Source: Escherichia coli
GTDB lineage: Bacteria > Pseudomonadota > Gammaproteobacteria > Enterobacterales > Enterobacteriaceae
Reading direction: 5' to 3' (one strand)
Assembly (NCBI RefSeq): GCF_001677475.2
Contig: NZ_CP015229.1
Length of the DNA: 64,000 nt
Every line of letters begins with the position of its first letter. The stretch's first letter is position 1. Below, one piece after another: positions 37,665-50,358 of the stretch. The translations under genes were made by a program, and so were the position numbers. A model generated the notes under the pieces. It made no database searches, had not been told where the DNA came from, and saw only the letters and a program-made list of their open reading frames with translations.

Positions 37665-40395
<2,731 letters not shown>

Positions 40396-40406
40396 CCACC
40401 AAAAAT

Positions 40407-40432
40407 AACCCCGGCGGCTGCCGGGGTTCTCG
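40407..40432. terminator. bidirectional rho-independent terminator
   Basis: AACCCCGGC-loop-GCCGGGGTT stem flanked by A-run and T-rich run between convergent genes. Confidence 0.6.
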
Positions 40433-40439
40433 TTAACTA

Positions 40440-40694
40440 TTATCTCCTTCGCCTGCGTGCCATATATTTGCGCACCGCGCGGCGTGGACAATCTGAAGCA
40501 GTTTCTTTCTGCTGCATCAATCTCGCAGCCATGCTCAAAAATGTCAGGCACAGCCGAAGCCCGGCATACAATAGCGGTTCCAGTGGCCACGTCTCATTGA
40601 GCACATATACCGCCATGAAAATCGAGTCAAAAACTATCGCCGCCAGCGATAACTTCATTGTCGAAAGTCGGCGGAGCTGCCGGAGTTTATTCAT
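40440..40694 (-). CDS. small membrane protein downstream of lyz (lysis accessory, LydC-like position)
   Basis: 84-aa track ORF with a hydrophobic N-terminal segment and Arg-rich C-terminus; overlaps the lyz stop. Confidence 0.4.
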   Translation of the reverse strand: MNKLRQLRRLSTMKLSLAAIVFDSIFMAVYVLNETWPLEPLLYAGLRLCLTFLSMAARLMQQKETASDCPRRAVRKYMARRRRR

Positions 40695-41244
40695 TGACCA
40701 GTCCCGTCAGGCAAAGCTGGCGTTCTTTTTCACGGCGAATCTTTAAACCTCGCAGGGGCACGCCGTTACTGTTCACGAAATCAGGGAGATGGTTACACAT
40801 ATTCACCCATTCCCCTTTCTGCGCCCACTTGTGGATGGACGTTTCAACTCGCATGCCTCGCGCTTTGCTGTAGTAGGTCCGTAAGCTATTGCATCCCATA
40901 TTGAATGCCGCGCTTGTCATTGCACTGAAGGCATTATCGGGCATGTCTTTGCCCCGGAAGTGCTGATTAATACAGCGTTCAGCGATCAGGATATTCTTTT
41001 CCCAATCAGCGGCGATTTGCTGGTCTGTTTTTCGCACACCCGGCGTTACCCCGTGTGTATTACCGATCCCGTCAGTCCATACCCCCGCCGGGCACATGTA
41101 TGGATCACGTCGGCAACCTTCAGCGTTTCCGATAAGCTCAAGCCCCGCCTGGTTGGTTCGCACATTGCCATTACCCATCACGATGGTAATCATCACCGCG
41201 ATAGCGCAAATTGCACCGCCTCCTGCGGCTGTTTTTCCCTTCAT
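40687..41244 (-). CDS. lyz: SAR endolysin (T4-lysozyme-like, GH24)
   Basis: 185 aa from MKGKTAAGGGAICAIAVMITIV (signal-anchor-release segment); track ORF extends to 41343 through an upstream in-frame start. Confidence 0.85.
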   Translation of the reverse strand: MKGKTAAGGGAICAIAVMITIVMGNGNVRTNQAGLELIGNAEGCRRDPYMCPAGVWTDGIGNTHGVTPGVRKTDQQIAADWEKNILIAERCINQHFRGKDMPDNAFSAMTSAAFNMGCNSLRTYYSKARGMRVETSIHKWAQKGEWVNMCNHLPDFVNSNGVPLRGLKIRREKERQLCLTGLVNE

Positions 41245-41377
41245 AAAGACCTCATAAGCGAATTTTTTACGCTCCAGGACAAACACCCATTCACAGCCAA
41301 TACCGACTGACTCGATCCCTTTAGAAGGTACAGGATAATGCAAATCACTTGTTAGCTACGTTTCAAAGATATACATT

Positions 41378-41394
41378 ATTGCTCTAATTAATTT
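41378..41394 (+). promoter_or_regulatory. C1-repressor operator between divergent lyz and ssb
   Basis: ATTGCTCTAATTAATTT, 16/17. Confidence 0.75.
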
Positions 41395-41413
41395 ATTTTA
41401 TTAGGTAAGATAA

Positions 41414-42046
41414 GTGGCACAACGCGGTGTAAACAAAGTCATCCTGATTGGTACCCTGGGGCAAGACCCGGAGATCAGGTATATACCAAATGGCGGCGCG
41501 GTCGGAAGACTCAGCATCGCAACGAATGAATCATGGCGCGACAAGCAAACGGACCAACAGAAAGAGCAAACAGAATGGCATAAAGTCGTTTTGTTCGGAA
41601 AACTTGCTGAAATTGCGAGTGAGTATTTACGAAAAGGTTCTCAGGTCTACATCGAAGGGAAACTTAAAACCCGTAAGTGGACAGATGACGCCGGTGTAGA
41701 ACGTTACACGACGGAAATTATCGTCAGCCAGGGCGGCACCATGCAAATGATCGGCGCTCGCCGTGACGATTCACAGTCCTCAAATGGCTGGGGGCAATCA
41801 AACCAACCTCAAAACCACCAGCAATACAGTGGTGGCGGTAAACCTCAGAGCAACGCCAATAACGAACCTCCAATGGACTTTGACGACGATATTCAAAAAC
41901 GACTGAAAGAAAAGCGGTGGTCCAGACGCCGACAAAAGCACGAACTCGCTAAAAAACGCCAAAGCTGGCAATGGCACGCGCTTTTCACGAAAAGAACACC
42001 CCGAGGCATTGCTTTCGCTGGTGGGAAAACATTCCTCCCCACCTGA
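41414..42046 (+). CDS. ssb: single-stranded DNA-binding protein with atypical C-terminal extension
   Basis: GTG start; N-terminal OB fold near-identical to the E. coli SSB sequence as recalled, through ...[10 protein letters not shown]; the canonical final PF-stop is replaced by about 50 basic residues ([14 protein letters not shown]...). Confidence 0.85.
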
Positions 42047-42083
42047 AGGCGCAATACATCAAATTTTAAGCAGAGAAAAGACT

Positions 42084-42737
42084 ATGAATAAAATGGCAAC
42101 GAAAGAGCTTTTTAAGTTCCTTCCCAAATACAAAGCTCACAAAATCGTTAGTGCATCGAAAATCAAAGATATCGAGATTATCTCATTGATTGATAATACC
42201 CCTGCTTGTGGCTATATCACATTAATGGACCCCCAAGGCGTAACGGTTCGTGTTGATGCAGCGTTTTTGCAAAAACACCGACCAGATACTGGCGGCTATC
42301 TGCTCGGTTATGAGGACGGTTATCTGTCCTATTCACCAGAAAAAACATTTGAAGAAGGCTTTAGTCGGACTAACGACTTCTTCGAAAATGAGGTATCGCT
42401 TAGCATTGAAGGTCACAATGGGGTGACATTCATTACAGCCAGGGACGTAACTATTGCTGCCGGTGGCATCATTACCACACAAGAAGAAATCGACCTTGAA
42501 GCAGCCGACTTCTCTGACGCGCTAATGTGGTTGAAGGAAGGCAAGAAAGTTGCCCGACGCGAGTGGAAAGGCGAAAAGCAATTCTGCTGGTTAGTTCTCG
42601 CTGGAAGCGTCAATTTACACGGCATTCACGTTCCTTATGGTGACCATTTTGTATTGAAAGATGCACAAAATATGGACAGCGTTTGGTTGCCGTCTGTGGA
42701 TGATTTACTGGCATGTGACTGGTTTGTAGTGGAGTGA
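42084..42737 (+). CDS. hypothetical phage protein with DUF2829-like C-terminal domain
   Basis: track ORF 42009-42737 trimmed to ATG 42084; C-terminal ...ALMWLKEGKKVARREW...DLLACDWFVVE. Confidence 0.5.
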   Translation: MNKMATKELFKFLPKYKAHKIVSASKIKDIEIISLIDNTPACGYITLMDPQGVTVRVDAAFLQKHRPDTGGYLLGYEDGYLSYSPEKTFEEGFSRTNDFFENEVSLSIEGHNGVTFITARDVTIAAGGIITTQEEIDLEAADFSDALMWLKEGKKVARREWKGEKQFCWLVLAGSVNLHGIHVPYGDHFVLKDAQNMDSVWLPSVDDLLACDWFVVE

Positions 42738-42743
42738 TTTAAC

Positions 42744-43526
42744 GTGGAAAATACTAAAGCAATTCAATACCGCCTGCGTAATGGTCAGAGTGTCGAAGTG
42801 ACCATCAATAATGATGGTGTGCCTGGCGAAAAGGTTTCGATCTCTGATCTGGCTATCGAAAAAACCATCATGTGCCACCTTGGCTTTACTGAAGAAGTGA
42901 GCAAAAAGCATGGTGTAGCAATCTGGAGCGCAATGGATACTGGTATGCGCAGATTCATTACTGCTCGTACCCCAGGGATGACCATGATGGACCTCATGCA
43001 GATTGCGCCGCTGTTTGAATGTGAGCCTTTAGATGTATTCAGCAATCCAGCTATCTGCCAGCAGTTATATGGTGAGATGAAACTCGCGGTTACCCCCATT
43101 GTGCTGCATGAAGGATCGCTTGCTGGCGTGTGGAAAGTGGAGCGTATTTCAAGCTACATGCCTTTCCATGTCAACGGCGTAATCACTGGTGAAAATCAAC
43201 CTGTTTCCGTTATAAAGTCAGACCTCAAGCGCGCAATTCTTGAAGCAAGTTGTCGAGTTGTCGGCCTGGGCAAACAGTCTTATGTTTCCTTCCCGGCTGG
43301 CCCTGAAGGCCCGGCAGAAATTCTGATTATGGATGCCGATCTGCTATGGCAAATACAGTTTCTGATTGGCAAAAGCATCATCCGCGCTGAAGAACTCGAT
43401 CAGTACATTACCTGCACGATGACGGATGAAGTCAAAAGTGTGGCTATAGCCAATGCCCGGAACCTATGTCGTGCTGCATTAACAGAACTGCAAGAAAACA
43501 CCACGGAAGAGGTGGAAAGTGATTAA
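42744..43526 (+). CDS. hypothetical protein
   Basis: 260-aa track ORF (GTG start), overlaps the next gene by 8 nt. Confidence 0.55.
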   Translation: MENTKAIQYRLRNGQSVEVTINNDGVPGEKVSISDLAIEKTIMCHLGFTEEVSKKHGVAIWSAMDTGMRRFITARTPGMTMMDLMQIAPLFECEPLDVFSNPAICQQLYGEMKLAVTPIVLHEGSLAGVWKVERISSYMPFHVNGVITGENQPVSVIKSDLKRAILEASCRVVGLGKQSYVSFPAGPEGPAEILIMDADLLWQIQFLIGKSIIRAEELDQYITCTMTDEVKSVAIANARNLCRAALTELQENTTEEVESD

Positions 43527-44613
43527 TCGTATACAGAATGAATCTGCCTGGTTAGCACTGATAGAACGGTATAAAGACAATTGGGAACTGGCAGCAAAAG
43601 AGTTGCTTGATATTGAGTTAACACCTCATCAAGCAAAAATTATTAACGCGATAAAGAACACCGGAGCCAAAGTCACTGCCACCACACCACATGGTATTGG
43701 GGAAACCTCTATTGTGGCAGTGATTAGCATCCTGCAAACAATACTGTATTCGTGTTCCCGTACAGTGGTTGTTTCTCCTGCGATTAACGATAGTCGAAAA
43801 ACAATAATTGACTATATGTTCCGTTATTGGGAGCGAGTTACCCAAAAACACCCTTTTCTTGGCAATTATTTCAGAATACACCCTGACAAAGGGTTGGTGC
43901 ATATCAGTGAAACATGGGGATGCGTCTATATAACCTATTGTCTGAATAACGAAGAGTCTCTGGCTGGTTTTACTGGACCGCACGATCTTTTCATCGTTAT
44001 TAACTCGGCGGAAATCAGCGATCGCGCTCATGCAGTGATAACTGGCAATTTAACCAATTATGACTCGCGCCTGCTGTTGCTGTCGAAACCATCGGAACGC
44101 GAGAAAGGGTACTTTTATGATTCGCATCACCGGTTGGCCCATAGTAAAAACAATCCTGCTGGTTTTTTCACGGCGATAACTCTAAACACAGAGGATTCAC
44201 CTCTCGTTTCTGAAGCATATCTTGAATTCAAAGCCAAAGAGTTTGGTGGACGCAATAGCGATGAATATCGCCGATTGATCTTGGGGAAATTCCCCGGGAT
44301 TCGGGAGTTGATGGAAAAGTCATCTGTTCCCCGTAATATGCACTTCACAATGACTGACGGTAGTAAATGGGTAGTGCCTACGATCGTGATCGCCAAACAC
44401 CATGCGAAACATCACGCTCAAAAACACAACTCCAGCACATTAGACTGGCTGAAGGCCTATACAATACCGTTATTCTCGGCAAACCATAACGCTATAACTG
44501 AATGGGCTAAACAAATCCCCTGGCAGGATGTGGCTGAAGAGGCGTTTGTCGAAAAACCACCAAGAGATTTGCACGAGCACTGTTGGCTGACATCAGAAAA
44601 AAGCTTCTCGTGA
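43519..44613 (+). CDS. terminase-large-subunit-like ATPase paralog (PacB N-terminal domain homolog without nuclease half)
   Basis: 364 aa; shares blocks with PacB at 17154-18638 (LLLLSKPSEREKGYFYDSHHRLA vs [22 protein letters not shown]; FTAITLNTEDSPLV vs [14 protein letters not shown]). Confidence 0.65.
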   Translation: MINRIQNESAWLALIERYKDNWELAAKELLDIELTPHQAKIINAIKNTGAKVTATTPHGIGETSIVAVISILQTILYSCSRTVVVSPAINDSRKTIIDYMFRYWERVTQKHPFLGNYFRIHPDKGLVHISETWGCVYITYCLNNEESLAGFTGPHDLFIVINSAEISDRAHAVITGNLTNYDSRLLLLSKPSEREKGYFYDSHHRLAHSKNNPAGFFTAITLNTEDSPLVSEAYLEFKAKEFGGRNSDEYRRLILGKFPGIRELMEKSSVPRNMHFTMTDGSKWVVPTIVIAKHHAKHHAQKHNSSTLDWLKAYTIPLFSANHNAITEWAKQIPWQDVAEEAFVEKPPRDLHEHCWLTSEKSFS

Positions 44614-44616
44614 GGT

Positions 44617-44646
44617 AAAAATCCCGCCGATTGGCGGGATTTCTTC
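44617..44646. terminator. bidirectional rho-independent terminator
   Basis: ATCCCGCC-GATT-GGCGGGAT stem flanked by A-run and T-rich run between convergent genes. Confidence 0.6.
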
Positions 44647-44953
44647 AATATACGATCTGGTCTACATGATCACCAAAATCATCGTCGTCGTCCTCATCGC
44701 CACCATCTACTGCTGGCCAATCAACAAACCAGCCAGCGTAAAGATGCAGCGTTCGGAGAACATCACTTGCGGGAGCATCAAGGGTGTTAACGAATCCCAT
44801 ATAGCTATTGGGATTTGCTCCAGCTATGGCTTCAGCGATCATGTCCTCGGTAATGTCACCGGAGATAATGCTTAAACGCCCGGAAACTTCTTCATTATCA
44901 TCAAATTCGATAATGGCATCTCCACCTAATGGCGCTGCGATTTTAATCTGCAT
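44645..44953 (-). CDS. small acidic protein at the end of the darA-type operon
   Basis: 102-aa track ORF ending in an Asp-rich tail; overlaps the ddrB-like stop. Confidence 0.5.
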   Translation of the reverse strand: MQIKIAAPLGGDAIIEFDDNEEVSGRLSIISGDITEDMIAEAIAGANPNSYMGFVNTLDAPASDVLRTLHLYAGWFVDWPAVDGGDEDDDDDFGDHVDQIVY

Positions 44954-45789
44954 TATTTAGCTCCTTTGCCACACCTAATAACAGTTCCAGCAATCCGTCA
45001 CCATTCATCAGTGATGCGGCAGCGGCCTCTTTGTCATGATACAACTGAAGAGCCATAGAGAATACTTCCGTTGCTGACGTTTTGGAAATAGTCGGTGATT
45101 TCTGCCGAATTTTCCCGGTGTTACTTACTGAGGCTGGCGGGTATACCTTCGCCATATAAATATTACTCAATCGAGATCTGAAGCACCATTCAGGCTTGCC
45201 ACGCCCACCGATATTGACGAAAGATGGCTTATCCCCTTCAACATTGGCCTTCAGGAATGACCGGGCTTTCTCTAACAAACCAGGGTTACTGTACTCAAGA
45301 TGATGACCCAGCTCGTGCCACAGTGCACTTGCATTTTCATCGTTCAAATTGACAGCAACAACACCATTTAGATTTGCATATGCCCTTCCCTGGTGGTGAA
45401 CTACCTTTGATAAGGTCGATATTTTCCCGCCGGTCAGGCGATAAATATCAGCAAGTTCCTTGCGCAGGTCTATCCCACCATTCTGTCCAGCGCGGGCTTC
45501 TTCCACTTCTTCTGTGATAAAAGAGTCGGCCCACTCAAGAGCTTTTTCTTCAGATACGGATGAGTTTGCGATCGCACTGTTCATGGCAGATAACACTTTC
45601 TCGTGGACCGAACCCATACTTCGCTGATTCATTTGCCAGCGTGTCTGCGGGTTATATGAGAATCGCTTAAGTAGTTGGTCAAGCTGCTCAAGTTCTTCTT
45701 CACTGACATACTTTTTAGCCTCACTATTAGACGTCAACTAGTTTTGCCGACTCGCGCCAACTATACTGGCCGCACCCTTCAGGGCGACA

Positions 45790-46545
45790 TCAAGTCGCGC
45801 TTGTTACTGCCTTCGCTGTCTTTTTCCTGTAGCTTTCCCCTTTCAGTTCGAACATATATCCGTGATGGATCAGCCTGTCTGCCGCAGCCACCGCCATAGT
45901 CTCATCCACGAAGATGCTGCCCCACATGCTGAACGGATGGTTACTGGTTATCACCAGGCTCCCACGTTCATAGCGATGCGCTATTAACTCGAACAGCACA
46001 CCCGTTTCGGCACTATCGCGTTTGACATAGCCAAGATCATCCACCACTATCACCCGGTAGCGATCCAGTTTCAGTAGCAGCTCATTCAGTTTCAACTGAG
46101 CTCTGGCTTTACGTAGTTCCTGCAACAGCTCTCCTGCGCTGTAGAACCGGGCCCGGTAGCCCTGACCTACTACGCCATCCACGATCGCTGCCGCCAGATG
46201 GCTTTTCCCCAACCCGCTGGCTCCGAACAGCAGAACGTTTTCTCCTGCATCAACCCAGTCTGTCGTTTCACAGAGTTGCCGGAACTGAGCTCCATTCAGT
46301 TCCGGCACCTGACTGAAGTCGTATTCGCTCAGCGTTTTGGCAACTGGCAACCGGGCCTCCTTTTTATAACGACGCAGTTTTTCACTCTCGCGCCACAGGA
46401 GTTCTTCATTGCATAGCGTCAGAAGATAGCGCGATGGTGTCCAGCCTTCTGCCAGCGCTCGTTTTTCCAGAGCGTGCCATTCAGCTCCAACTCGTGTCAG
46501 GCGTAGTTTACGCAGGCTATGTTCAAGGTGATGGATATTGCTCAC
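45790..46545 (-). CDS. istB: IS21-family IstB helper ATPase
   Basis: 251 aa, one residue different from copy 1 (DRLIHHG vs DRLLHHG). Confidence 0.92.
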   Translation of the reverse strand: MSNIHHLEHSLRKLRLTRVGAEWHALEKRALAEGWTPSRYLLTLCNEELLWRESEKLRRYKKEARLPVAKTLSEYDFSQVPELNGAQFRQLCETTDWVDAGENVLLFGASGLGKSHLAAAIVDGVVGQGYRARFYSAGELLQELRKARAQLKLNELLLKLDRYRVIVVDDLGYVKRDSAETGVLFELIAHRYERGSLVITSNHPFSMWGSIFVDETMAVAAADRLIHHGYMFELKGESYRKKTAKAVTSAT

Positions 46546-48041
46546 TGCGAACCTCCCTTGCCACGCAGTAGTTGCTCATAACTGCTCAGGTTATGCTGTA
46601 TCACATTGACTACCGGCAACGCCTTTTCTTTTATACCCAGGAAGCGCATCAGCCGGTGCAGATCCACGTTTCCCGGGGTATTCAGCATCTGCTCCATACC
46701 TTTTGCCACGACTGAGATATCGTCGTATCCTGCAGCCAGTTTCAGGGCATGTACCATCAGCCTTCCTGCCATATCGGGCTCCAGATGATTACATAAGCGA
46801 CGCCACAGCCTCCGCCATTCATCGTCCGGCAGGATGTCATTTCTCAGCGTTGCATGGCAGAACGCACCGGGCTTTTTTGCCAGACTGTCGATCACATGTC
46901 GGAAGTCGATACGACGGGCCCGCGTCTTCCCTTTTTCTGGTCTGACGCGAGGGCAGCTCATGACCTCGCTGCTGCCAACGTAACAGCTCAGACGATCGTC
47001 CCATAACCTGACCCGTAACAGTTGACCTACAAGCCGGGAAGGTACGCTGTAGACGACGTGCTTCACATTGATGGTACTGCTGCGACTAACCCTCACAGTC
47101 AGCTCATCATAGTCAGCACTGCGACGAAGCGGCAGCGGTTTCAGATGAAGACGTTCTTCCTTGACCAGATCCTGATTGTTACGGTTGTGCCGCATAACCT
47201 GCTGAGTGATGAAGGCCTGATATTCTTCTATGGTGCTGAAGTCGTTACTGCCCCGCAGTATCAGCGCCTGACAGATACGCCTTTTCAGATGTCCGTGGGC
47301 ACTTTCAACCGAGCCATTTTCGTGGCCCCGACCGGCATTATTGTGTACGCCCTGCATTCCGTAGTGCTGACAGAGAGTAGCATAACGCTCAGTCAGCTCG
47401 CGGCGTCCATCTTCGCCCTGTTGTTTCCATGCTGCCCTCAGGCTGTCCGTTTTATGTTCTACCGGCACTCCGCCCAGTTGTCCGAGGGCTTCCTGCAGGC
47501 CTTCAGCCAGAGCAGAGAAGCTCTCACCACCCAGAACAACCCGCATCCAGCTCCAGTGGCTCCATTCCAGACGGAAGTGATACAACTTATGCGCCAACAA
47601 CTTACCGGCGATGGTGACAACTACACCTTTCAGTTCAGTAAAGTCCGACAGGCCTCGCAGGCCGGGCTGATGTTGCTGGCGGAACATGACCTCCTGCTCT
47701 GTACCATACTGTAGTTTCCATTCGCGAACCCGCCGTTGCATTGTTCTTCGAAGGCTGTTGGGGTACTGGCCGGGATATTTATCCTGTAGCATCTCCAGTA
47801 GAGTTGTTGGTGTCAGAGCCGGCCTCTCTTTCAACAGAGGAACAAGCATGCTGTCCCACACAGCTTCCAGAGGATCTTTGCGTGTGCGCCAGTGCCGAAC
47901 ACTGTTTTTTGCCCACTCTCCTTTTTCGATCCGACGACCAGAACGGACTGAGATACCAGCCTTCATGGCCGAGATATGCTGAGTTATACCTTTCTTACGC
48001 TGAGTCATATAGTAACTGACCTGAGAAGTATTGAGCGTCAC
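46542..48041 (-). CDS. istA: IS21-family IstA transposase (intact)
   Basis: 499 aa, GTG start; continuous frame spanning both fragments of copy 1. Confidence 0.92.
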   Translation of the reverse strand: MTLNTSQVSYYMTQRKKGITQHISAMKAGISVRSGRRIEKGEWAKNSVRHWRTRKDPLEAVWDSMLVPLLKERPALTPTTLLEMLQDKYPGQYPNSLRRTMQRRVREWKLQYGTEQEVMFRQQHQPGLRGLSDFTELKGVVVTIAGKLLAHKLYHFRLEWSHWSWMRVVLGGESFSALAEGLQEALGQLGGVPVEHKTDSLRAAWKQQGEDGRRELTERYATLCQHYGMQGVHNNAGRGHENGSVESAHGHLKRRICQALILRGSNDFSTIEEYQAFITQQVMRHNRNNQDLVKEERLHLKPLPLRRSADYDELTVRVSRSSTINVKHVVYSVPSRLVGQLLRVRLWDDRLSCYVGSSEVMSCPRVRPEKGKTRARRIDFRHVIDSLAKKPGAFCHATLRNDILPDDEWRRLWRRLCNHLEPDMAGRLMVHALKLAAGYDDISVVAKGMEQMLNTPGNVDLHRLMRFLGIKEKALPVVNVIQHNLSSYEQLLRGKGGSQ

Positions 48042-50358
48042 GCCATTTCCTGTTGGATCATGTAAATGACACTCAGGTTACAAAACCGGCCAGAATAATC
48101 GGCGCCAGGCGGACTGAGTTATTGTCGTCTCATACCTCACCAATAATGCCAGGGAGAATATTGCCGTTAGGATTAAACGCTCGCGAAAGGAAGAGTTTCA
48201 GCGCCCCCATGCCCTCCGATGCTTCAATATCACCAATAACCCGGTTAACAATGGCCGCACTCTTCGGATTAGCATCCGCCAACGCTCTGGCTACAATTTG
48301 CAGGGACGATACGACCTCACGCTGCATATCCGTCCTGATCTCATCAATAAACTCTGGCGTTATGCCGTGCTCTTTAAGAATATCCCTGCCTTCCGCCGTT
48401 ACCCCATCGATATCACCGACATGTTTATTAACCCGACTTTGCAATGCCTTAAATGCCTTCAGAATTCCACGGGAATCATCCGCTTTACTAACGGCCTTCC
48501 TGAATGCTGGCAAGAAGTCTGAGTTAACCTCATTTTGTTGATCGGCCCACTGAATGGAGGCTTCTTTCATCTCGTCCAGAGTCAGATCACCCAACGCGGT
48601 ATGGTCTGTGAATATGAGCGACAACCTCTGAACCATTTCTGCCAATGGTGATGCCGAATGCGCCGCGCTAAGGAATGCTTTCACCCTGGTTGGGCGAATG
48701 GAAAACCAGTCAATAGCTGGTGGCATATCTCCGTTTTGTATCGCCTGCGCTATCTCATCAAAGCCGTCGCGCCCAAGGGAGGATGCGTGATTTAACAATC
48801 CGCGAAGTAACGAATTGCTGATACCGAATAATCGGCACCATTTATTCACGTCGGCAACAGGCATTCGAACAAAATGCGCAAGCACTTGTACAAGCTGTTC
48901 ATCCTGGGGATCTGTACGGGAAAGCAGCCTGATCAGATGAATAATGTCTTTGATGCCGGATGCCCGATGTAATAGCAAGCTGGTATATGGAGCAACACCG
49001 TTGTAACTACCGCCGGAAACGGACTCGAAAAGACCGCCGGATATCCCTTGCATGCCTTCGTTTTCCAGTTCCTGAGACACCTGGCGAAGGATATCCTGTA
49101 ACGACACATCGCCGCCGCCAAACATATCCCCCAGCGCCTGGCCCTGGTGCTGTAACTCATCATTGATACGTTGAGCCATCAACTTAAAGGCGGTGGCCAT
49201 ACGCTTCGCGCTACGGTTATTCGCGACGATGAACAACGCGAGTGCTTTCACTTCCGGGGCCGTTTCGCTGAACATATCCCCCTGAGCAATAACATCGGTA
49301 ATATGCTGGCCTGACTCCTTCGATTGCCTTACCAGGTCTACCGCATCTTTCAATGCCGCCAGCGCCTTTTTATCGAGGCTATCCGCTGTCTCAATGCCAT
49401 CAACAATAGTTGTCACAGCCTGCTTGTGCGCTTCTCCTGATAAAGCCTGCATCTGGACAAAATCATTGGCTGCCGCATTAAGCGCCGTCAGAACATTACG
49501 CATATCCGGATCAGGTTCTTCTGCAACCATCCTTACCAGGCGCGCATCCTTATATGCCTTGGCAAAGATCGCGTTTTGTATACGGTCAACAAGTTGCCGC
49601 GTTGGTCGCCCATCTTCCGTTACAAGGCCAGCAGCCTGTGTGGCACCAACTTGCGTCATGAATCCGCGAATAAACGCGTCATTACTGCGGCTAAGCAGAT
49701 CTCCGCTTTCTGACGGATTAAACAGCGCCATCATCGCCGGTGTTATGCTGTCGGCATCAACAAAAGCCTTTTCACTGGCTGCCATTTCCTGAAGATCAGA
49801 AATATTTGAGTCCTTGGCAAACTGAACGCGGTCAACCTTAGTTAACCGGCGGCGCACCAATACAGGAGCCGTCATTGATTCAACCTTTTCAGGTCGTATG
49901 CCGAATTCGGTCGCATGTTCAATCAGGTACTCACGATACCGATCCGCATTGCCGTCCTGATAGGCTTTAATGATTCCCATGGTCCGTCCATTACCTGACT
50001 CAACGGCATTGTCCTCACCAATTATCGGCGCGCCATGGCTGGATAAACCGGAATCGGTAAGCTGAGCAGGCCGCAAATCTTTGGATATCTGGTTAACCTG
50101 AAGAAGGCTGGATGCGCGGGTCCGGTCGCGCGGCTGAAGTTCCTGGGGATAGTCAGGATTAATTTTCCCATCCAGAGTATTGGATACCAAAAGAGCTGAG
50201 GCATCGACGATATCAAACGCTGTTTTTACCTCGTCTCCCTTCGCTGTCACCACATACGAAACCCGCCCATAATCGGGCAGGTTCTTAAGCAGCTCGATCA
50301 GCGTTTCTATGCTGGTGGCAATTACCACCTGATCGCTTAAGCTCATCCCTGTTACGCC

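Follow-up and report, generated by a model that had tools for sequence, protein, structure and literature searches.

The window, by which we mean the whole 64,000-nucleotide stretch of Escherichia coli DNA analysed here, contains a segment that corresponds to the lyz-ssb-isaA region of a P1-like phage-plasmid. The genes follow one another in the order pro, lydD, lyz, ssb, (orf60), a Tad2-like gene and an isaA-like gene, which agrees with the order in relatives and puts ssb in the position that it occupies in Punavirus genomes. The ssb gene is the orthologue of P1 ssb (product AAQ13990.1, record AF234172), with which it has in common the GTG start, the promoters, the C1 operator and the site downstream of lyz; over residues 1-160 the two proteins are identical at 159 of 160 positions. 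Its control region (41349-41411, plus strand; coordinates transferred from the AF234172 annotation and function presumed from P1) is predicted to comprise the promoters P2ssb (41349-41377) and P1ssb (41384-41411) together with the C1 operator Ossb/Op21 (41378-41394), all on the plus strand. The 101 nt between 41340 and 41440, which include both promoters and the operator, are 100% identical to P1. An intact DUF2829/Tad2-like gene (PF11195; 42084-42737, plus strand) is next in the operon.

In the window, the ssb reading frame is fused to that of orf60, the small gene behind it. The fused ORF runs from its GTG start at 41414 to 42046 on the plus strand and comprises 210 codons and a stop, made up of Ssb residues 1-160, a hybrid junction codon (Gln161) and 49 downstream codons, which are those of orf60 from codon 4 onward. 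Past the sequence ...MDFDDDI the protein adds 50 basic residues and the Pro-Phe-stop end is absent, so that what remains of the acidic tip (MDFDDDI, residues 154-160; 41873-41893, plus strand) is now internal and lacks the terminal Pro-Phe-COOH. The initial annotation, which was made from the DNA letters and their reading frames, had described an SSB without the canonical acidic tip and with a basic run-on of about 50 residues, and both our reading of the ORF and the ends of the profile matches agree with that description. The NCBIfam profiles NF006533 (260.8 bits, cut-off 260) and TIGR00621 (174.8 bits, cut-off 53.95) match the protein as far as residue 160 and end two profile positions short, corresponding to the missing Pro-Phe. 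Neither an IPF-stop nor a second SSB gene was found in any frame of the 64-kb window, and the first of these results bears out the further claim that no single-base frameshift would restore the tip.

The body of the protein is that of P1 Ssb with a single substitution. The OB-fold domain for ssDNA binding and tetramerisation (residues 6-106; 41429-41731, plus strand) matches PF00436 with E = 3.8e-39, and W41, W55, H56, F61 and W89 (counting Met1), which occupy invariant columns in an alignment of 18 sequences, are all kept. From what is known of E. coli SSB, we take W41, W55, F61 and W89 to be the aromatic residues that contact ssDNA and H56 to be the histidine of the tetramer interface. The domain is followed by a Gly/Gln/Pro/Asn-rich linker (about residues 107-153; 41732-41872, plus strand), which is predicted to be disordered from its composition and from AF2 pLDDT values below 50 over residues 107-152; residues 107-153 are the same as in P1. 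Over residues 1-160 the protein departs from P1 Ssb only at codon 47 (41552-41554, plus strand): the P1 codon GGC (Gly) has become GAC (Asp), a change that falls in the loop joining strands 2 and 3. Position 47 is glycine in all 80 of the IMG/VR SSB loci. Relative to P1 Ssb, then, the window protein lacks Pro161, Phe162 and the stop, carries the 50-residue basic tail and has the G47D substitution. An acidic tip that ends in a free C-terminal Ile-Pro-Phe, a defining feature of bacterial-type SSBs, is missing; judged by its sequence, the window Ssb has every other feature by which a bacterial SSB is recognised.

The origin of the fusion is seen directly in DNA alignments of the ssb region with P1 (AF234172), SJ46, pMTY1586 and pSA186_4. 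Between positions 41894 and 41895 (plus strand; alignments A1, A2 and A6), 15 bases that are present in P1, CGTTTTGAATGTGTA, are gone from the window. The missing piece spans two of the three bases of the Pro161 codon, the Phe162 codon, the TGA stop, the ATG and TGT codons of orf60 and the first base of its AAA codon; the deletion thus removed codons 161-162 and the stop of ssb together with two and a third codons at the start of orf60. The deletion allele reads ATTC/AAAAACG across the junction (the slash marks the lost bases), and the form that has the 15 bases reads CCGTTTTGA. A loss of 15 bases, being divisible by three, leaves the phase unchanged, so that Ssb residues 1-160 are read in frame into orf60. 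The gap is a discrete feature of the alignment rather than a statistical signal, and both flanks are near-identical across the relatives. Comparison with P1 and related Ssbs, which had been proposed as a check, shows that the indel or fusion suspected towards the 3' end of ssb is a clean 15-bp gap in otherwise near-identical DNA.

A second lesion lies 143 nt downstream, at 42037 on the plus strand, where the window has C in place of the GA that all relatives have, a net loss of 1 nt. This shifts the reading frame, so that the fusion ends in ...GGKTFLPT-stop instead of ...GGKTFLTHLKAQYISF-stop and the last 10 codons of orf60 are put out of frame. It is because of this second lesion that the fusion stops after 50 added residues. 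The remnant of the orf60 3' end, HLKAQYIKF-stop (42038-42069, plus strand), persists out of frame with the fusion, in the frame of an ORF at 41971-42069.

As to how the 15 bases were lost, no flanking microhomology was found at the junction. The deleted piece corresponds to one arm and the loop of CGTTTT-N-AAAACG, and the stem is the predicted minimum-energy structure; this is a weak suggestion that a hairpin caused the deletion. A hairpin-mediated event is nonetheless speculative, since the stem is weak, having an energy of -3.5 kcal/mol and a z-score of -1.0, with 35 of 200 shuffled sequences folding as well. Searches for structured RNA returned no Rfam matches at E <= 1 within 41200-42300, and an ARAGORN scan of all 64 kb predicted no tRNA genes.

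The gene into which ssb now reads deserves attention of its own. In relatives, orf60 is a conserved ORF of 60 codons whose wild-type product contains 17 Lys and Arg against 3 Asp and Glu, and the extension that the fusion derives from it (41895-42043, plus strand) contains 16 against 2. The orf60 ATG directly adjoins the ssb stop in P1-type sequences and follows it by 5 nt in pSA186-type sequences, being retained across the 5-nt indel that separates the two allele types; this stop-start arrangement suggests that orf60 is translationally coupled to ssb. In the P1 record AF234172 (our locus L001) the orf60 region lies at 2104-2286, and its counterpart in the window is 41895-42069. All 17 distinct same-length variants at P1-like loci keep the orf60 frame open, and their variable sites fall at codon positions 1, 2 and 3 in the numbers 8, 4 and 11. 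PGAP calls a 60-residue hypothetical protein here in NZ_CP095126.1 (WP_032163662.1), and the gene is annotated in only some records. No PHROG family was found for orf60, no Pfam domain was found in the fusion tail, and a search of 5.8 billion sequences returned two near-identical clusters and no relatives outside P1-like elements. We treat orf60, on its pattern of conservation, as a real small gene that is restricted to P1-like elements and mostly unannotated.

The same variants bear on the annotation of isaA. In the P1 GenBank record, the isaA CDS has a GTG start inside the orf60 region, in another frame. This overlapping frame, which makes up the annotated N-terminus of isaA, carries stops in 10 of the 17 variants, and we rejected it for that reason as a long coding frame; the N-terminus of isaA in the P1 record is probably over-extended. 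It is for annotation that the present observations carry their main weight: the label of a long SSB, the standing of orf60 as a real gene and the N-terminus of isaA. The "long SSB", as read from these alignments, is an evolutionary fusion artefact and not a new class of SSB.

The fused allele is not peculiar to one assembly. The exact 210-residue protein (P0001) was found in a public protein collection and is present on at least nine contigs. Four of these, which we compared in detail, come from four separate sequencing runs (SRR22006506, SRR11608754, ERR10434848 and SRR3929499); they are 99.98-100% identical to the window over 38414-45046 and have both lesions in common with it. With 0-1 SNP in 6.6 kb, the sequences that carry the fusion are near-clonal, so that a measurement of selection on it would lack statistical power. 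The comparisons show it confined to this one near-clonal lineage. The exact junction had no match in IMG/VR, in GTDB genome contigs or in JGI metagenome contigs, which only shows that the lineage is missing from those three collections, and it was also absent from the phage, plasmid and complete E. coli genome records searched. The surroundings of ssb are in good order: a comparison of 19 neighbouring genes from 30.1 to 54.3 kb with those of plasmid p15648-1 finds 16 of them full length at 97-100% amino-acid identity. Besides ssb, the exceptions are ddrB, which is split, the Tad2-like gene, which is full length at 69%, and one holin that matches weakly. These intact neighbours indicate that the window is not a noisy assembly.

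The split ddrB gene gives the fusion a relative age. An IS21-family element (45723-48135) with istA (46542-48041) and istB (45790-46545), both on the minus strand, separates the two ddrB parts at 48130-50346 and 44943-45737. In the sibling contig from SRR11608754 (L087) the ssb fusion is present, the IS21 insertion is absent and ddrB is intact at 995 residues. The fusion is therefore older than the insertion and has persisted through further divergence.

Loss of the docking tip is rare among P1-like elements and has occurred more than once. All 41 P1-like loci in IMG/VR end in [D/E]DDIPF, as do P1, P7, SJ46 and the plasmids that we inspected, and the same end is found in 73 of the 80 IMG/VR SSB loci overall; public P1-like ssb alleles form a 90% cluster of 2151 member sequences. 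A shared extension in all P1-like homologs would have made the window protein ordinary, and the 41 loci dispose of this possibility. Only one tip-loss allele came up in a search with matches in 425 complete E. coli genomes, that of pMB06172 (WP_447312147.1), in which a 13-bp deletion at nearly the same site is out of frame and leads to ...DDDIPKND-stop; a locus of this type lies at 1075-1569 of L004 (NZ_JBRNIL010000002.1). A Salmonella allele of 145 residues (P0007), present on 17 contigs, has lost 51 bp in frame and with them the entire acidic tip, so that the protein ends in ...GGGKPF. It is found at 1501-1938 of loci L092 and L093, where orf60 is left intact. Finally, IMG/VR locus L019 has a deletion of 105 bp (about 2980-3010) that keeps the IPF-stop and drops approximately the first 33 codons of orf60. 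Taken together, these alleles mark the 3' end of ssb as a site of recurrent damage in P1-like elements, and tip-less P1-type Ssb alleles have at least three origins, two of them represented on many contigs (at least 9 and 17).

The consequences for the protein were considered with the help of a predicted structure. The AF2 model of the fused Ssb, for which alignment A5 was used, has a low overall confidence (mean pLDDT 56), with values of about 66-75 in the beta-barrel. It places one long helix over residues 156-192, which begins in the acidic remnant and continues into the basic tail; pLDDT is about 75-78 over residues 161-180. (A further alignment, A4, was dropped because orf60 proteins had been wrongly set against the SSB N-terminus.) The tail has a charge of +14, and the fusion moves the net charge of the protein from -2 to +12 and its pI from 5.7 to about 10.

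We consider it most likely, with a probability of roughly 0.75, that the lineage-specific fusion of ssb to orf60 by a 15-bp deletion amounts to a partial loss of function and is tolerated rather than adaptive. The deletion across the ssb stop has joined Ssb residues 1-160 to orf60, and a second small lesion ends the tail. With its OB fold and linker undamaged, and with the promoters and C1 operator of its gene unchanged, the protein can probably still cover ssDNA, and the general biology of SSBs suggests that it would do so as a tetramer. It would no longer offer a free ...DDDIPF-COOH to partner proteins; the acidic remnant would lead instead into the +14, probably helical tail. The net effect may be a coat on ssDNA that does not recruit partners. 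The initial annotation had set an altered interactome against an indel or fusion as alternatives, and the alignments make it likely that the former is a consequence of the latter.

Tolerance of such a lesion is easily imagined, given the position of ssb in the biology of P1. The gene is reportedly repressed in lysogens, and the phage is said to manage without it while hosts grow exponentially and to profit from it only in stationary phase, so that a damaged copy would cost little. Since P1 ssb is repressed and accessory, the lesion is most likely tolerated: as a prophage gene it would be silenced by C1, and host SSB would back up its function. The two hits in orf60 and the G47D substitution at an invariant glycine also point, at the level of sequence, towards relaxed constraint on the ssb-orf60 pair rather than towards a new function.

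Published experiments on other SSBs give an idea of what such a protein might do. SSB function depends on the C-terminal IPF, and in complexes with partners it is the IPF that is seen bound (PMC10143822). Fusions of GFP to the C-terminus of SSB required co-expression of wild-type SSB; in mixed tetramers, up to two fused subunits keep activity, while three lead to weaker partner binding (bioRxiv 10.1101/664532). Over-expressed P1 SSB complements the E. coli ssb-1 mutation (PMC3208561).

The relevant event might alternatively have been the inactivation of orf60, in which case the change in ssb would be collateral, its stop lying inside the same deletion. The window has two separate orf60 lesions, one that deletes the start codon and one that frameshifts the 3' end, and the 13-bp deletion of pMB06172 and the 105-bp deletion of L019 likewise remove the orf60 start. 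That orf60 has neither relatives beyond P1-like elements nor a PHROG family also speaks for this explanation. Most of the orf60 sequence, however, is still in frame as the predicted tail of the SSB, and the Salmonella 51-bp allele loses the tip and leaves orf60 intact. With a sample of three or four alleles, we regard this explanation as unlikely.

Rather unlikely, too, is a change of function in which loss of the docking tip and gain of a basic helical tail were selected in phage-plasmids. The gains that can be envisaged are an escape from the recruitment of host nucleases and helicases, the poisoning of host SSB tetramers during lytic growth, or an altered sensing by defence systems, several of which respond to phage SSBs. 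The reversal of the net charge and the predicted helicity of the tail would fit with this, as would the independent occurrence of three tip-loss alleles (15 bp, 13 bp and 51 bp) that all spare the OB fold. Indeed, at least three origins of tip loss, two of them on many contigs, could reflect positive selection instead of tolerance, and a selected change of function would likewise be expected to leave the OB fold unharmed, as all lesions seen do. Against this, the tip is kept by the vast majority of relatives, including every P1-like locus in IMG/VR, and the search with matches in 425 genomes brought up a single exception. The three altered C-termini also differ from one another (a basic tail of 50 residues, ...IPKND and ...GGGKPF) and have no gain in common, and the frameshift within the tail, like G47D at its invariant glycine, has the look of decay. 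Moreover, T7 gp2.5 without its C-terminal Phe or its tail still triggers DARNA and Retron-Eco8, the two SSB-sensing systems in which this has been tried (10.64898/2026.02.22.705581; PMC13402713). The stronger proposal, that tip loss has been recurrently selected and that the fusion is a working neomorph which shields ssDNA from SSB-recruited enzymes or alters defence sensing, seems to us distinctly improbable. Selection for tip loss, if real, would have implications for the way in which mobile elements handle the host SSB interactome and for immunity that senses SSBs; the evidence does not favour it.

That the true end is ...DDDIPF-stop and the fusion an artefact of sequencing or assembly is very unlikely on the basis of assembled contigs, for although indels near homopolymers (here CC and AAAAAA) are typical errors, a 15-bp loss is unlike a homopolymer error, the same junction and second lesion recur in assemblies of independent runs, and the flanking genes are largely full length, so that the concern over an assembly error raised in the initial annotation is answered at the level of assemblies.

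Counterparts of such a partially defective Ssb have been made experimentally. Mutants of E. coli SSB that are altered at the C-terminus, and proteins fused to it there, resemble the window Ssb in that the terminal IPF is either gone or not free. The ssb-113 (P176S) mutant and tip deletions of E. coli SSB bind ssDNA and recruit partners poorly. Likewise, SSBs with C-terminal fusions bind ssDNA, recruit partners poorly and need wild-type subunits (PMC10143822; bioRxiv 10.1101/664532). Unlike these constructs, the window allele is natural, lies on a mobile element where it is a redundant copy of ssb, and ends in a basic peptide rather than a tag. In T7 gp2.5, the absence of Phe232 abolishes binding of the partner polymerase and leaves ssDNA binding intact (summarised in 10.64898/2026.02.22.705581), although gp2.5 comes from an SSB lineage without relation to this one, is a dimer and not a tetramer, and was altered in the laboratory.

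Among natural proteins, the closest parallels are the tip-less alleles of pMB06172 and Salmonella, in which the same gene in the same context is damaged in the same region and the docking end is lost; they arose by other deletions, and neither is fused to orf60, in contrast to the window allele. Bacillus subtilis SsbB is a second SSB that is naturally without a tail, an OB fold lacking the docking tip, and represents a conserved family of competence paralogues. The window allele is no such dedicated paralogue: it is an orthologue whose normal form has a tip and which was damaged recently. What the window adds is a natural case of a phage-plasmid that has persisted for a while with an SSB whose docking tip is not usable, which fits with the accessory role of the gene.

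A separate group of phage SSBs places residues behind the tip without damaging it. Seven of the 39 non-P1 phage SSBs (IMG/VR loci L051, L052, L053, L054, L058, L060 and L081, at about 2501-3040 in each) keep DDDIPF and continue for approximately 15 conserved residues, for example APVTLPFPRHAIHAL, so that the IPF is internal. By tblastn, they have full-length matches in named phages, among them Escherichia phage ECP1, Cronobacter phage JK004 and Hafnia phages. Like the window Ssb, these proteins are natural and their IPF is not C-terminal; unlike it, they keep the whole of DDDIPF and their tail is short, not basic, and conserved across divergent phages. The window tail has no similarity to their motif APxxLPxPxHxxxx[L/I] and does not belong to the ECP1-like class of extensions.

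One further observation concerns the gene downstream. PF11195 is the family of the anti-Thoeris sponge Tad2; P1 is without such a gene, and the window allele is 69% identical to that of p15648-1. With ssb/orf60 on one side and the isaA-like gene on the other, it appears to occupy a slot for variable cargo.
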